14,994 nt of DNA from IMG/VR virus record IMGVR_UViG_2681813161_000005. One strand, given 5' to 3'. Position 1 is the first letter of the stretch. Each line of letters opens with the position of its first letter. Shown one piece after another: positions 2,783 through 14,994 of this stretch. This DNA is from a virus (taxonomy: Duplodnaviria; Heunggongvirae; Uroviricota; Caudoviricetes). The position numbers and the translations under genes were made by a program. The notes beneath the pieces are model-generated. The model was not told where the DNA came from, ran no database searches, and saw nothing but the letters and a program-made list of their open reading frames with translations.

Positions 2783-2983
2783 ATGTCATCAAAGAACAGA
2801 ACCCGCAGAACAACAACCCGCAACATCCGATTTCCAAACCAGATGATTGAACAAATTAACATCGCTCTTGATCTGAAAGGTTCAGGAAACTTTTCAGCGT
2901 GGGTTATTGAAGCCTGCAGGAGAAGGCTGGCAACAGATGCAACGCATCTGCGCCCGGCCAGCATGAAAAATAACGAGAAATGA
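2783..2983 (+). CDS. Ribbon-helix-helix (Arc/Mnt/CopG-like) small DNA-binding protein, 66 aa
   Basis: N-terminal basic stretch, then beta-strand-like RNIRFP followed by two helices (NQMIEQINIALDLKG / NFSAWVIEACRRRL), the same layout as Arc (FNLRWP) and Mnt (FNFRMP). GGGG(A) Shine-Dalgarno about 7 nt upstream of the ATG. Confidence 0.55.
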   Translation: MSSKNRTRRTTTRNIRFPNQMIEQINIALDLKGSGNFSAWVIEACRRRLATDATHLRPASMKNNEK

Positions 2984-3114
2984 ACGTTCGGTTACAGGAG
3001 CAGGTACCCACTGTCCTCCAACAATATTTCATCTTCATATCCGACGGAACAAGACTTACCCTGCCGGGATGTACAGAATAACAACAGAGTGATAATTAAT
3101 TTCTGATGAAATAA

Positions 3115-3447
3115 TCAGGGTGCAGAAGGACTAAAGATAAACGTTTTCTTCACGCCTTTACACGGCCTGTCCTTCTCAAATCGCCATTTTGCCATCGCCT
3201 TTACAACCTGCTCATCAAACAAATGGTGCGGCTCTGAACGGATAAACTCAATTCGGGTGACAGTACCATCAGCACCAATATCAAACTTCACATCAACCCG
3301 TCCCTTTATATAATTTGCCGCTGCATAGGCCGGATATTGTGGTAATGCCTTAACCAACTGTCGGGGCATATCTGTTTTATGTTGCGTACAGCCCATAACC
3401 AGAGAAGACAACAAAATAATTAACGGAAGGTTTCTTTTCATTTTCAT
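3115..3447 (-). CDS. Lipoprotein with a TonB C-terminal-domain-like sequence (alternative GTG start at 3456)
   Basis: Signal peptide MKMKRNLPLIILLSSLVMGC with a lipobox-like VMGC. Mature part PQYPAYAAANYIKGRVDVKFDIGADGTVTRIEFIRSEPHHLFDEQVVKAMAKWRFEKDRP matches the remembered E. coli TonB C-terminal domain pattern (PQYPARAQALRIEGQVKVKFDV..DGRV...PANMFEREVKNAMRRWRYEPGKP). It lacks TonB's N-terminal membrane anchor and Pro-rich spacer. Confidence 0.6.
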   Translation of the reverse strand: MKMKRNLPLIILLSSLVMGCTQHKTDMPRQLVKALPQYPAYAAANYIKGRVDVKFDIGADGTVTRIEFIRSEPHHLFDEQVVKAMAKWRFEKDRPCKGVKKTFIFSPSAP

Positions 3448-3461
3448 TCCCGGCACAGATA

Positions 3462-3478
3462 AGAATAAGTCTTATTCT
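3462..3478. promoter_or_regulatory. Perfect 17-bp palindrome (8-1-8) just upstream of the lipoprotein start; candidate operator
   Basis: AGAATAAG-T-CTTATTCT on the + strand, with arms that are exact reverse complements, 6-15 nt upstream of the candidate start codons of the 3115..3447 gene. Confidence 0.4.
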
Positions 3479-3785
3479 AACAATGCCACCCTGTCGGTCA
3501 TCAATCCTCTGCTTAATGGCAACGACAATTATCCGACTTAAATCACAAATCAGACACATGACATAACAGAGCTTGCGAGGTAACACATCGTCCGGTTTCT
3601 TCCACCATCGCACCGGACCAGCGACCATGAGGGGACAACGCCGCGCTCCGTTAACGCGGTAAACCCCGGTGTGTATCGTTTTTGATTATCCCCGCACACT
3701 CGCGCAGAGGAGTCTCCCGGTCGGGCTGCGGTCTCTGTTAATGCGGGGATACGGCGACAATACCGCGCATGGTTAATAAGGTCGC

Positions 3786-4010
3786 TCAACACACTGGCTG
3801 TAATGCAGCGGATACCATGCGGCATTTAGCGGCATTCATCGTACACTCAACGGTTAGCTCTTCATTCGTGGCATTCACCTGAAAGGTCCGGGAGTGTAAT
3901 TGCGTACATTTACCACTGAACGAACCTTCAACAAGAACACGACCACGCTGCAAAATACGGAACGGAATTGTTCCCTGAAAAGGCTTTACGGTTACCAGTA
4001 ATTTCTTCAT
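3786..4010 (-). CDS. Small Cys-containing hypothetical protein (74 aa), immediately downstream of Rz
   Basis: ATG at 4008..4010 with GGAG 5 nt upstream; begins 23 nt after the Rz stop on the same strand. Five Cys, no signal peptide. No family recognised. Confidence 0.45.
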   Translation of the reverse strand: MKKLLVTVKPFQGTIPFRILQRGRVLVEGSFSGKCTQLHSRTFQVNATNEELTVECTMNAAKCRMVSAALQPVC

Positions 4011-4033: not shown

Positions 4034-4432
4034 CTAGTTAATACACTGAGTGCGGATATATTCCTGCGCCCCTTCCAGTTGCTTCTGCATTGTCATCAAC
4101 CGCTCTCTGAGGGTGAAATAATCCCGTTCAGCGGTGTCTGCCAGTCGGGGGCCGGTTGCATTATCCATTCCGGAGGTGCCGGTGGCTTCACGCACGGTAC
4201 CGGAGCAGGTGGCGTTGATCCGCAGGCGCTTACGACCAGCGGCAACATCACGCTGGCGCTGCTGCATGTCAGTAATGGTTGCGTTTGCCAGCTCCAGCTC
4301 TCTGGCTTTTTTATCGCGCTGCGCTTTGTAGGTGATGGCGTTATCACGGTAATGGTCTGTTGCCAGCCACAGCGCACCACAGACCACCAGCAGAATAACG
4401 GTAAACGCGGAAAGCATTCGGTTTATGTTCAC
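4034..4432 (-). CDS. Rz: Rz i-spanin (lambda Rz homolog)
   Basis: HYRDNAITYKAQRDK...RLADTAERDYFTLRERLMTMQKQLEG matches lambda Rz closely; N-terminal TM segment. Lacks an internal segment (about 24 aa, from memory) relative to lambda Rz. Start is GTG at 4432 or ATG at 4417. Confidence 0.85.
   Translation of the reverse strand: MNINRMLSAFTVILLVVCGALWLATDHYRDNAITYKAQRDKKARELELANATITDMQQRQRDVAAGRKRLRINATCSGTVREATGTSGMDNATGPRLADTAERDYFTLRERLMTMQKQLEGAQEYIRTQCIN
4096..4248 (-). CDS. Rz1: Rz1 o-spanin lipoprotein embedded in the +1 frame of Rz
   Basis: MLPLVVSACGSTPPAPVPCVKPPAPPEWIMQPAPDWQTPLNGIISPSESG matches lambda Rz1 (..MLPLVVVGC..CVKPPPPPAWIMQPPPDWQTPLNGIISPSERG). Lies entirely inside Rz. The true start may be upstream or non-AUG, because the signal peptide is short. 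Confidence 0.75.
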   Translation of the reverse strand: MLPLVVSACGSTPPAPVPCVKPPAPPEWIMQPAPDWQTPLNGIISPSESG

Positions 4433-5646: not shown

Positions 5647-5700
5647 TGAACCGCCCCGGGAATCCTGGAGACTAAACTCCCTGAGAAAGAGGTAAACAGG

Positions 5701-6026
5701 ATGACTAAAAATACTCGTTTTTCCCCGAAGTCCGTCAGAGGGCGATTCGTATGGTTCTGGAAAGTCAGGGCGAATATGACTCACAGTGGGCGGCAATTTG
5801 TTCCATTGCCCCAAAGATTGGCTGTACACCGGAGACTCTGCGTGTCTGGGTACGCCAGCATGAGCGGGATACCGGAGGCGGTGATGGCGGGCTCACCACC
5901 GCTGAACGTCAGCGTCTGAAAGAGCTGGAACGTGAAAATCGTGAACTGCGCCGCAGTAACGATATCCTTCGCCAGGCTTCCGCTTATTTTGCGAAGGCGG
6001 AGTTCGACCGCCTCTGGAAAAAGTGA
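5701..6026 (+). pseudogene. IS629 orfA with a -1 frameshift in a homopolymer (HTH N-terminus lost; internal restart possible at 5751)
   Basis: [15 protein letters not shown]... diverges from copy 1 ([18 protein letters not shown]) after codon 9 because of the one-base-shorter C-run. The downstream frame [10 protein letters not shown]... is identical to copy 1. Confidence 0.8.
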
Positions 6027-6913
6027 TGCCACTGCTGGATAAGCTGCGTAAGCTGTACGGGGTCGGACCGGTATGCAGTGAACTACATATTGCCCCGTCA
6101 ACGTATTACCACTGTCAGCAACAGCGACATCATCCTGATAAACGCAGTGCCCGTGCGCAGCGCGATGACTGGCTGAAGAAAGAGATACTGCGCGTATACG
6201 ATGGGAATCATCAGGTATACGGTGTGCGTAAAGTCTGGCGTCAGTTGTTACGGGAAGGTATCAGAGTGGCCAGATGCACTGTGGCACGTCTCATGGCGGT
6301 TATGGGACTTGCCGGTGTTCTCCGGGGTAAAAAGGTCCGTACGACCATCAGCCGGAAAGCCGTTGCCGCAGGCGACCGCGTAAACCGTCAGTTCGTGGCA
6401 GAACGACCTGACCAGCTGTGGGTGGCTGATTTTACTTACGTCAGCACATGGCAGGGCTTCGTCTATGTGGCGTTCATTATTGATGTGTTTGCCGGATACA
6501 TCGTGGGGTGGCGGGTCTCATCGTCCATGGAAACGACATTCGTGCTGGATGCTCTGGAGCAGGCGTTATGGGCCCGTCGACCGTCCGGCACGGTCCATCA
6601 CAGTGATAAAGGTTCTCAGTATGTATCGCTGGCCTACACACAGCGGCTTAAGGAAGCCGGATTACTGGCATCAACAGGAAGTACAGGCGACTCGTATGAC
6701 AACGCGATGGCGGAGAGCATCAATGGTCTTTACAAAGCGGAGGTAATACACCGTAAGAGCTGGAAAAACCGTGCAGAAGTGGAACTGGCCACACTCACGT
6801 GGGTGGACTGGTATAATAATCGACGATTGCTGGAAAGGCTGGGCCACATCCCTCCGGCAGAAGCAGAAAAAGCTTATTATGCTTCCATCGGAAACGATGA
6901 TCTGGCAGCCTGA
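6023..6913 (+). CDS. IS3-family transposase OrfB (DDE), 296 aa
   Basis: Protein identical to the orfB products of copies 1 and 3. Confidence 0.9.
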
Positions 6914-13919: not shown

Positions 13920-14994
13920 CGTAGCCGGTCTTTACGAAAAGTTTGATCGCAGAACTGGCAGAGTTTACTACCAGTATAAAAATCCTGTGACTGGAAAATT
14001 TCACGGACTCGGAACAGACAAAGGTAAGGCAGAAAAAATCGCTTCCACAGCCAATCAGCGAATAGCTGCAGCAGAAGCTGAATATTTCATGCGCAAAATT
14101 GATGAAAGTCCGTCAGCAACAAAACGTCGGGGTATCAGATTAAAGGCATGGGTTGATCGATATCTGAAAATACAGGACACGCGACTGAAAAATGGAGATA
14201 TTGCAGCTACAACTCACAAAGAAAAAACTCGAATGGCTGCATACCTGGTTTCCCGTCTGGGAAACCACCCATTGAAAGAACTGGAAGTAAGAGACTTTGC
14301 ATTAATACTGGATGAGTGGCTGGATAAAGACATGGTCAGCACAGCGAGAGTAAATCGTGGATTATGGGTTGATATTTATAAAGAAGCACAGCATGCAGGG
14401 GAAGTTCCTCCTGGATGGAATCCTCCGGAGGCTACCCGTAAACCGATCCCTAAAGTAACCAGAGCCAGGCTCACCATGGAAGACTGGCAAAAAATTTACA
14501 ATGCAACGCCTGAAAAACACTTTATCCGTAACGCAATGCTTCTTGCGATTGTTACTGGTCAGCGCCGTGATGACATTTGCCACATGCGTTTTTCAGATGT
14601 GTGGAACGAACACTTGCATATCACCCAGGGAAAAACCGGAATGCGTCTGGCGTTACCGCTTACACTACGCTGTGATGCCATTGGGATAACGTTAAAAGAA
14701 GTTATTGATGGGTGCCGAGACAGAATATTAAGTCCATATCTAATCCATAGTCGGCACCAGAAACAACCGAAGCCGATGAGTAAAGACAACCTGAGCGACT
14801 ACTTTGCCAAAGCACGGGATCTGGCTGGGATAATTCCACCAGCAGGAAAAACTCCGCCAACATTTCATGAACAACGCTCTCTATCAGAACGGCTGTACCG
14901 TGCACAGGGTATCGATACAAAAACATTACTAGGACATAAAGTCCAGGCAACCACCGATCGCTATAACGATACTCGAGGTCAGGAATGGGTTTAA
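13888..14994 (+). CDS. int: Tyrosine recombinase / phage integrase (lambda Int family), 368 aa
   Basis: Lambda-Int-like C-terminus with the catalytic Tyr context (LLGHK...TDRYNDTRGQEW). Overlaps xis. The stop is at the window edge, so the att site should lie just beyond 14994. Confidence 0.85.
   Translation: MSPRPRKNSTDVAGLYEKFDRRTGRVYYQYKNPVTGKFHGLGTDKGKAEKIASTANQRIAAAEAEYFMRKIDESPSATKRRGIRLKAWVDRYLKIQDTRLKNGDIAATTHKEKTRMAAYLVSRLGNHPLKELEVRDFALILDEWLDKDMVSTARVNRGLWVDIYKEAQHAGEVPPGWNPPEATRKPIPKVTRARLTMEDWQKIYNATPEKHFIRNAMLLAIVTGQRRDDICHMRFSDVWNEHLHITQGKTGMRLALPLTLRCDAIGITLKEVIDGCRDRILSPYLIHSRHQKQPKPMSKDNLSDYFAKARDLAGIIPPAGKTPPTFHEQRSLSERLYRAQGIDTKTLLGHKVQATTDRYNDTRGQEWV

Follow-up and report, generated by a model that had tools for sequence, protein, structure and literature searches.

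The window analyzed here is a stretch of 14,994 nucleotides belonging to the IMG/VR virus record IMGVR_UViG_2681813161_000005 (Caudoviricetes), and it carries on its minus strand a gene for a small TonB-like protein of 108 amino acids (3115..3441, with the stop codon at 3115-3117). Sequence comparison, the predicted fold, and a conserved lipobox confirm that this open reading frame (ORF) encodes a stand-alone TonB head, that is, the C-terminal domain of TonB, in the form of a lipoprotein. The best explanation for its function is that of an outer-membrane lipoprotein serving as a tethered, non-energizing competitor for TonB boxes, a reading that is favored tentatively and with a probability a little short of even. 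The original prediction, made by a model from the letters of the sequence, had described the same gene as a candidate decoy against TonB-dependent uptake, preceded by a perfect palindromic operator. Its observation has been confirmed and its interpretation is supported in part: the TonB-head lipoprotein holds, the operator is not supported.

A stand-alone TonB head with a lipoprotein signal

In the interval 3115-3478, the ORF lies on the minus strand and extends over 3115..3456 when it is opened at GTG. Of the in-frame ATG codons at 3447 and 3441, only the one at 3441 is kept in the clade of phage 21; ATG 3447 is replaced by ATA in the phage 21 copy, and the GTG at 3456 is likewise not conserved. 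A Shine-Dalgarno motif read from the sequence, GGGA (3448..3451, minus strand), is located 6 nt upstream of ATG 3441 and corresponds to AGGA in phage 21. The gene call of RefSeq is identical in length (WP_000828068.1, "TonB family protein", 327 nt, 108 amino acids).

The protein is laid out as MKRNLPLIILLSSLVMG (signal), CTQHKTDM (Cys and tether), and PRQLVKALPQYPAYAAANYIKGRVDVKFDIGADGTVTRIEFIRSEPHHLFDEQVVKAMAKWRFEKDRPCKGVKKTFIFSPSAP (domain). Pattern matching and the family alignment predict a lipoprotein signal peptide at residues 1-17, followed by Cys18 as the putative lipidation site (together 3388..3441, minus strand). The tether TQHKTDM, residues 19-25 (3367..3387, minus strand), leads from the anchor to the fold and was delimited by alignments and by the pLDDT of a structural model. 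The TonB C-terminal domain covers residues 26-104 (3130..3366, minus strand) according to alignment, AlphaFold2, and Foldseek. Just 25 residues, made up of the predicted cleavable lipoprotein signal and the tether, precede the domain.

The domain assignment is supported by several profile libraries. The Pfam family TonB_C (PF03544) matches the protein with E=1.3e-14 and 54.8 bits (cutoff 24.6), and the Pfam scan returns TonB_C and TonB_2 and no other families. The NCBIfam model tonB_Cterm (TIGR01352) is passed with 54.5 bits at a cutoff of 27.1. Models of full-length TonB equivalogs (NCBIfam, PRK10819 type) gave 49-74 bits against cutoffs of 265-448, one pair being 74 against 315. When all chains of the PDB were searched with phmmer, residues 26-104 (79 amino acids) aligned without gaps to the TonB heads of E. 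coli and Salmonella (1U07, 2GSK_B, 2GRX_C, and 8RD6; E about 1e-15 to 1e-16). These residues correspond to 153-231 of K-12 TonB, with identity at 31/83 positions (37%). The alignment to the TonB C-terminal domain, which had originally been made by eye, is therefore correct by the Pfam match, the gapless phmmer alignment, and the identity count alike. Among the residues of TonB, Q162, Y163, P164, F180, G186, F202, and W213 are kept in the lipoprotein, the QYP segment being retained as Q35-Y36-P37, while Q160 is changed to L, R166 to Y, and R158 to K. The strand equivalent to TonB β3 comprises residues 94-103 of the lipoprotein and retains the alternating hydrophobic pattern.

Fold prediction against TonB heads, which had been suggested as a check of the assignment, was carried out with AlphaFold2 and Foldseek and returned the fold seen in solved TonB heads, in which helices pack against a three-stranded sheet. 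The AlphaFold2 model was built from an input alignment of 41 sequences; its pLDDT is 96-98 in the domain and climbs across the tether from about 51 to 81-96. The best Foldseek matches are 1u07, 2gsk_B, and 2grx_C (probability 1.00, root-mean-square deviation 1.1-1.4 Å), and the target TM against TonB heads is 0.88-0.91, including the BtuB-bound and FhuA-bound heads. TolA domain III and HasB are much poorer structural matches to the model than the TonB heads. The isoelectric point (pI) of the lipoprotein is 9.6 and that of the E. coli TonB C-terminal domain is 10.4, so that both are basic.

The N-terminus, MKRNLPLIILLSSLVMG before the Cys (MKRNLPLIILLSSLVMGC), fits a lipoprotein pattern of the PROSITE PS51257 type, in which a positively charged n-region and a hydrophobic h-region are followed by [LVI][ASTVI][GAS]C with the Cys at position 15-35. 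The lipobox consists of L-V-M-G and the Cys, and the residue at position +2 is Thr, which means that the Asp signal for inner-membrane retention is absent. Relatives came from two word-indexed searches and a profile search, along with an exhaustive HMMER run over 1.84 billion representatives, and they form a distinct family of ~110-residue proteins. The lipobox Cys is invariant in 16/16 family members (34-88% identity to the window protein). Across members 32-88% identical to the window protein, position +2 holds T, S, or A but never D, and the distance from the Cys to the first conserved Pro is 8-11 residues in almost every member of the family. Members of the lipoprotein family score E values of 1e-17 to 1e-24 with the query, as against about 1e-11 for true enterobacterial TonB proteins. 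Since the lipoprotein relatives outscore genuine TonB, the family represents a lineage of its own and not a series of recent tonB captures.

A residue other than Asp after the lipid-bearing Cys directs a lipoprotein to the outer membrane by Lol-dependent sorting, which is known as the +2 rule. By this rule, and by the short conserved tether, the TonB-like lipoprotein is predicted to be located in the outer membrane. The presence of a lipoprotein signal in place of the membrane anchor of TonB, one of the claims made at the outset, is borne out by the pattern match and by the invariant Cys across the family. A second claim, that the protein cannot transduce energy, also stands, because neither a membrane anchor nor a Pro-rich spacer is present and the cutoffs for TonB equivalogs are missed.

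Distribution, selection, and the proposed competition for TonB boxes

The TonB-like gene is a mobile accessory gene, or "moron", of lambdoid prophages and is found on plasmids and some chromosomes as well. Of the 5426 complete E. coli genomes examined, 1616 (about 30%) carry a member of the family. Approximately 415 of these carriers belong to the clade of the window (at least 95% identity) and about 1200 to the phage 21 clade (about 74%). The window's protein is 100% identical to the product of inducible Shiga toxin (Stx) 1a phages and of phage Lys8385Vzw. Further phage carriers include JLK-2012, the lambdoid phage 21, ev017, and Perceval, together with a Klebsiella phage at 40% identity. In Klebsiella and Pantoea plasmids, family members are located in accessory regions, and chromosomal members in ordinary neighborhoods are found in Pantoea agglomerans and in one Salmonella-labelled genome.

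Between the window and the phage 21 copy, identity amounts to 72% for the protein and 73% for the DNA, with a synonymous divergence (dS) of 1.37, a nonsynonymous divergence (dN) of 0.18, and a dN/dS ratio of 0.13. Such a ratio indicates that the gene is real and under purifying selection. It also bears on the view that the gene is a functionless captured fragment of tonB ("partial tonB-like" in older annotation) or that its product is a spanin component, as labels in GenBank and PHROGs would have it. The PHROG family phrog_1267 ("Rz-like spanin", lysis) matches the product of 3115-3441 over its full length with E=7.7e-43. A fragment, however, is difficult to reconcile with the low dN/dS ratio, with a newly gained and conserved lipoprotein signal, and with an occurrence in several genera and replicon types. 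As for the spanins, an i-spanin is recognized by an N-terminal transmembrane helix and a coiled coil, and an o-spanin is a short Pro-rich lipoprotein that is embedded or adjacent. The product of the TonB-like gene has a globular fold that lacks a transmembrane helix, a coiled coil, and the Pro-rich character of an o-spanin, and the carrier phages have their own Rz with embedded Rz1. The spanin identity was therefore rejected, and the phrog_1267 match is read as family membership only. Whether as fragment or as spanin component, a trivial origin of this kind is extremely improbable. The label "Rz-like spanin" of phrog_1267 looks like annotation by neighborhood and will spread into phage annotations.

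In intact prophages, the gene always lies on the strand of the late genes, with the lysis cassette on one side and the gene for the small terminase subunit on the other. This slot holds in E. coli, in Klebsiella, in a Salmonella prophage-bearing plasmid, and in a Rahnella prophage (35% identity); in phage 21, the TonB-like gene comes after bor. The position would suit a late helper of the lytic cycle, as opposed to a lysogenic-conversion gene, acting in the last minutes before lysis via Q-antiterminated transcription. In a possible variant, the helper would guard the holin from early triggering when colicins or superinfecting phages collapse the membrane potential. TonB-box capture could be common to such a helper and to the decoy reading, the two differing in timing and beneficiary. 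The gene is always co-oriented with the lysis cassette and lies directly 3' of it, with no convincing terminator in between, and PHROGs places the family under "lysis". A TolA-head lipoprotein, described below, is also oriented with the late operon and occupies the stx site of Stx phages. The helper is nevertheless decidedly unlikely: plasmid and chromosomal members exist outside prophages, the gene is intact in the window, whose prophage can neither lyse nor package, and the protection of the holin is conjecture throughout.

In the preferred reading, competition for TonB boxes, the TonB head would be held on an 8-residue leash beneath the outer membrane. Without the anchor and the Pro-rich rod it would have no coupling to ExbB/ExbD and would deliver no energy. 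The lipoprotein would occupy TonB boxes by strand addition at the β-sheet edge that is used by TonB, and the boxes captured could belong to transporters, to group B colicins on their way in, or to both. As an outcome, phages of the T1/phi80 type, group B colicins, and microcins would find their TonB-dependent entry uncoupled or reduced, and it is in this sense that we infer exclusion by the TonB-like lipoprotein. The gene runs in the direction of the late operon, possibly with a promoter of its own besides. Reasoning from lambda, one would expect late transcription of a gene so oriented downstream of the Q-antiterminated late promoter.

The QYP segment of TonB (160-163) cross-links to TonB boxes. 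At TonB position 160, the lipoprotein carries Leu, as in the Q160L allele of TonB. This allele is active and rescues function when the TonB box of FhuA or colicin M is mutated (PMC11658791). More generally, TonB heads bind transporters by taking the TonB box as a strand beside β3 (review PMC11658791). TonB-dependent iron import is reported to be inhibited when the periplasmic domain of TonB is over-produced (Howard et al. 2001, in the account given by PMC9841981). Circumstantial support for the decoy reading thus comes from the tether and the +2 residue, from the precedent of Howard et al., and from a parallel lipoprotein that bears the head of TolA.

The lipoprotein-anchored TolA C-terminal domain is encoded at 13555-13983 (minus strand) of NZ_CM144248.1 and at 3348-3782 (plus strand) of plasmid NZ_CP045217.1, with a further locus at 8986-9492 (minus strand). 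Its design comprises a signal ending in LILASLTTG before the Cys, a linker of about 35 residues, and TolA domain III. The protein aligns without gaps to E. coli TolA 333-420, matches the Pfam family TolA (PF06519) with E=2.9e-22, and reaches E about 1e-24 in the PDB. In RefSeq it is named "cell envelope integrity protein TolA" (e.g., WP_063104047.1 and WP_032416767.1). Related copies are present in 895/5426 E. coli genomes, in phage mEp460_ev081, and in 739 plasmids, mostly from Klebsiella. In 8/9 plasmids carrying an identical Klebsiella-type TonB lipoprotein, the TolA lipoprotein is found 3-5 kb away from it; the window prophage itself has no TolA lipoprotein. That the same mobile elements carry lipid-tethered heads from both of the import-energizing systems exploited by colicins and phages speaks for decoys or blockers more than for a housekeeping role. 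It is possible, if on balance doubtful, that the TonB and TolA "head decoys", tethered to the outer membrane and encoded on lambdoid prophages and large plasmids of Enterobacterales, constitute a matched pair that intercepts the TonB boxes and TolA-binding epitopes of arriving colicins, microcins, and phages or blocks the TonB boxes of transporters, providing a generic, receptor-independent immunity that covers both import routes.

Several points weigh against competition for TonB boxes. The residues R166, R158, and Q160, by which TonB contacts transporters in crystal structures, are replaced by Y, K, and L in the lipoprotein and are variable within the family. The gene is carried by ~30% of E. 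coli genomes and by Pantoea chromosomes, and a constitutive block would be paid for in iron and vitamin B12, so that the activity would have to be weak, conditional, target-selective, or of a different kind. What indicates expression in the lysogen is a consensus promoter match, and none of the PADLOC models matched the lipoprotein at E<=0.01.

The variable contact residues, together with a prevalence that counts against a costly transport block, would agree with an envelope lipoprotein in which the TonB-like fold is used to bind peptidoglycan, Lpp/OmpA, or some other protein of the outer membrane, and which would contribute to envelope stability, serum resistance, or a further host-fitness trait in the manner of the neighboring moron bor. 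The ordinary metabolic neighborhoods of the members in Pantoea and in the Salmonella-labelled genome point in the same direction, as does the accessory slot shared with bor in phage 21 and lambda-like phages. However, the nearest matches in sequence and structure are true TonB heads and not TolA or other TonB_C-like domains. In addition, the pairing with a TolA-head lipoprotein fits the theme of Ton and Tol as parasitized import systems. An envelope role is regarded as unlikely.

The upstream palindrome and the remainder of the window

A perfect 8-1-8 palindrome, AGAATAAG-T-CTTATTCT, is located at 3462-3478 (no strand) and ends 20 nt 5' of the start codon. A sigma-70 promoter is predicted on the minus strand from its match to the consensus, with the -35 element ATGACC at 3501-3496, a 16-nt spacer, and the extended -10 element TGtTAGAAT at 3482-3474. 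The palindrome overlaps the predicted -10 element and the expected transcription start, and the -10 portion of the promoter is conserved in both E. coli clades. The phage 21 clade keeps the left arm, as TTGT(T/C)AGAATAAGAC, where it coincides with the predicted extended -10 element; the right arm falls within a 13-nt indel that is missing from this clade, the commoner of the two by a factor of three. Members from Klebsiella, Rahnella, Pantoea, and Salmonella have no such palindrome upstream.

The exact palindrome pattern, allowing for 3 mismatches, is expected 0.02 times per window. Any perfect palindrome with 8-nt arms and a spacer of 0-3 nt is expected about 0.9 times per window, and two were seen. 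The palindrome is therefore unexceptional as such, and only its position stands out. The second one, ATCACTTA-TT-TAAGTGAT, lies at 9991-10008, past a copy of an insertion sequence (IS) and beside a truncated SASA-esterase gene. No further copy of the upstream palindrome with up to 3 mismatches was found in the window or in the 47-kb carrier phage Lys8385Vzw. A scan of 185,579 species genomes (596 Gb) returned scattered, unrelated, AT-rich taxa in approximately the number expected by chance for 16 bases. An RNA hairpin was considered and rejected, the minimum free energy being -4.9 kcal/mol with z = 0.18 relative to shuffled sequences.

A function as the operator of a dimeric repressor, either Fur or a phage protein, would place the gene under regulation by iron or another signal. 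The palindrome is perfect and unique and covers the predicted -10 element and start. Taken as a Fur site, the region can be read as GATAAG-AATAAG-T-CTTATT; its three NATWAT-like hexamers then follow the forward-forward-x-reverse order of Fur boxes and match 13/19 positions of the 19-mer consensus. The probability of reaching 13/19 in 200 shuffled nucleotides is about 0.02, and the best score in the 200 nt upstream of K-12 tonB is 12/19. In the same phages, stx1 is preceded by a Fur box of 16/19 (Lys8385Vzw 41841-41859, upstream of stxA), in a promoter known to be regulated by iron, which was used as a positive control. However, the 47 kb of Lys8385Vzw contain 16 sites of at least 13/19, and the members of the phage 21 clade and those from Rahnella, Pantoea, and Salmonella do not share the match. 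Given this background, the stronger control, and the lack of conservation between clades, the Fur box was rejected as evidence and kept as a side hypothesis. With the right arm in an indel that the commoner clade and the other genera lack, no second copy, and about one such palindrome expected by chance, an operator is very unlikely. Of the "perfect palindromic operator" in the original prediction, the perfect palindrome with its 8-nt arms remains, and the operator is left unsupported. The palindrome is a clade-specific feature, a candidate operator at most, and no defining part of the gene family.

Two side observations touch on regulation. The stx1 Fur box indicates that Fur-regulated accessory genes do occur in phages carrying the TonB lipoprotein. 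The ribbon-helix-helix (RHH) protein named earlier as a possible binder of the palindrome is the product of a small gene of the YlcI/YnfO family (DUF3950, phrog_949) at 2783-2983 (plus strand). This gene is convergent with the TonB-like gene, lies on the strand opposite the late genes, like bor, and nothing was seen that connects it with the palindrome.

The window prophage is heavily degraded, its terminase and head genes having given way to IS elements, yet the TonB-like gene is intact. Its closest intact relative is the prophage of NZ_CM144248.1, with 99.5-99.9% identity over the shared segment. An IS3-family element is present in three copies (1-1214, 5700-6913, and 8437-9650), which resemble IS629 and contain ALIL frameshift pseudoknots according to Rfam (817-933, 5981-6097, and 9253-9369). 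An ORF or fragment of an IS66-type transposase (1393-2667) occupies the expected place of the terminase, and an IS1-like insertion (12931-13628) splits a DNA methyltransferase gene (11898-12485 / 12642-12929). Rz (4034-4432, with Rz1 embedded at 4096-4380) has an internal deletion of 23 residues relative to the NZ_CM144248.1 prophage.

Between a 74-residue ORF (3786-4010) and the TonB-like gene lies a ~180-nt segment (about 3590-3770, minus sense) that is 77-95% identical in 398 phage records, which include Stx1/Stx2 phages, VT1-Sakai, BP-4795, and lambda-like phages. This segment is present with or without the TonB gene and elsewhere sits between bor and the terminase. Its conservation between the two E. 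coli clades exceeds that of the TonB-like coding sequence. The segment is not consistently annotated as an ORF and matches nothing in Rfam, and an Rfam scan of 3100-3800 in the window returned no RNA family. The 74-residue ORF was rejected as a conserved partner of the gene, as it is not homologous to the 74-residue ORF in the same place of the Rahnella prophage. Farther along the window, a small RNA of the STnc100 family (RF02076, 139 bits) adjoins three tRNA genes (Arg-tct, Arg-tcg, and Met/Ile-cat). Together they occupy 11341-11531 and 11608-11857, both on the minus strand, which is the position of the TolA lipoprotein in NZ_CM144248.1.

Significance and comparison with known systems

The gene is already annotated, as "TonB C-terminal domain protein" in the curated record of phage 21 and as "TonB family protein" in RefSeq. 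The statement in the original prediction that no description of such a mechanism was known agrees with the literature searched, with the reservation that this annotation of the gene exists. A literature search found no functional study of the TonB lipoprotein or the TolA lipoprotein and no account of a decoy lipoprotein architecture or of a TonB/TolA pairing, and the phage 21 genome paper makes no mention of the TonB-like gene.

Import by the TonB and Tol systems is the entry route for phages T1, phi80, H8, and Ff, for all colicins, and for several microcins, and it also admits siderophore-antibiotic conjugates of the cefiderocol type. If the decoy reading is correct, a mobile dominant-negative TonB head would alter the genome-based prediction of susceptibility to phages, colicins, and "Trojan horse" antibiotics. 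The carriers concerned include Stx1a phages, O157 strains, and Klebsiella plasmids, as well as about 30% of complete E. coli genomes. The few receptor blockers known from phages would also be joined by one with a generic mechanism. The pair of head decoys, if it exists as such, would represent a defence principle apart from the receptor-specific Llp and Cor, carried by roughly one E. coli genome in three. If the decoy reading is wrong, there is still a very common, strongly selected prophage lipoprotein of known fold.

The closest point of comparison is the C-terminal domain of E. coli TonB (about 150-239), with which the lipoprotein shares the fold, the YP motif, the aromatic core, and the basic pI. 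TonB has an N-terminal transmembrane helix and a Pro-rich spacer, and the lipoprotein has neither. It is predicted to be lipid-anchored at the opposite membrane, and Q160, R166, and R158 are replaced. The fragments studied by Howard, Herrmann, Stratilo & Braun 2001 (J Bacteriol 183:5885) likewise place a TonB head in the periplasm without energy coupling and provide the mechanistic precedent for a head with a dominant-negative effect. These fragments were soluble, artificial, and over-produced, whereas the lipoprotein is natural, predicted to be lipid-tethered beside its presumed targets, diverged (37% identity), and selected on mobile elements. The TolA lipoprotein follows the same plan of lipobox, linker, and transducer head, but with another domain and a longer linker.

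Among phage lipoproteins, Bor/Iss of lambda and phage 21 is similarly a moron for a small lipoprotein of the outer membrane and fills the slot that separates Rz from cos/terminase. It is unrelated in sequence, is read from the other strand under a promoter of its own, and has a role in serum resistance. Llp of T5 and Cor of the phi80/N15/HK022 type, which inactivate FhuA in superinfection exclusion, are also small phage lipoproteins that act on a TonB-dependent transporter from the periplasm. They have no kinship in sequence or fold with the TonB-like lipoprotein, and a search of a viral structure library with the lipoprotein model found nothing at E<0.2. T5 Llp, a functional analogue, is an outer-membrane lipoprotein of the inner leaflet that binds FhuA on its periplasmic face, which is also the face of TonB (bioRxiv 10.64898/2026.03.26.714494; PMC9586334), and it illustrates how a small lipoprotein so placed can disable a TonB-dependent transporter from the periplasm. 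Llp is specific for FhuA and acts allosterically, whereas a TonB head would presumably act on TonB boxes in general. If the proposed mechanism holds, the TonB-like lipoprotein would join the phage lipoproteins that shut TonB-dependent gates, but it would do so by mimicking the energizer and would not be receptor-specific.

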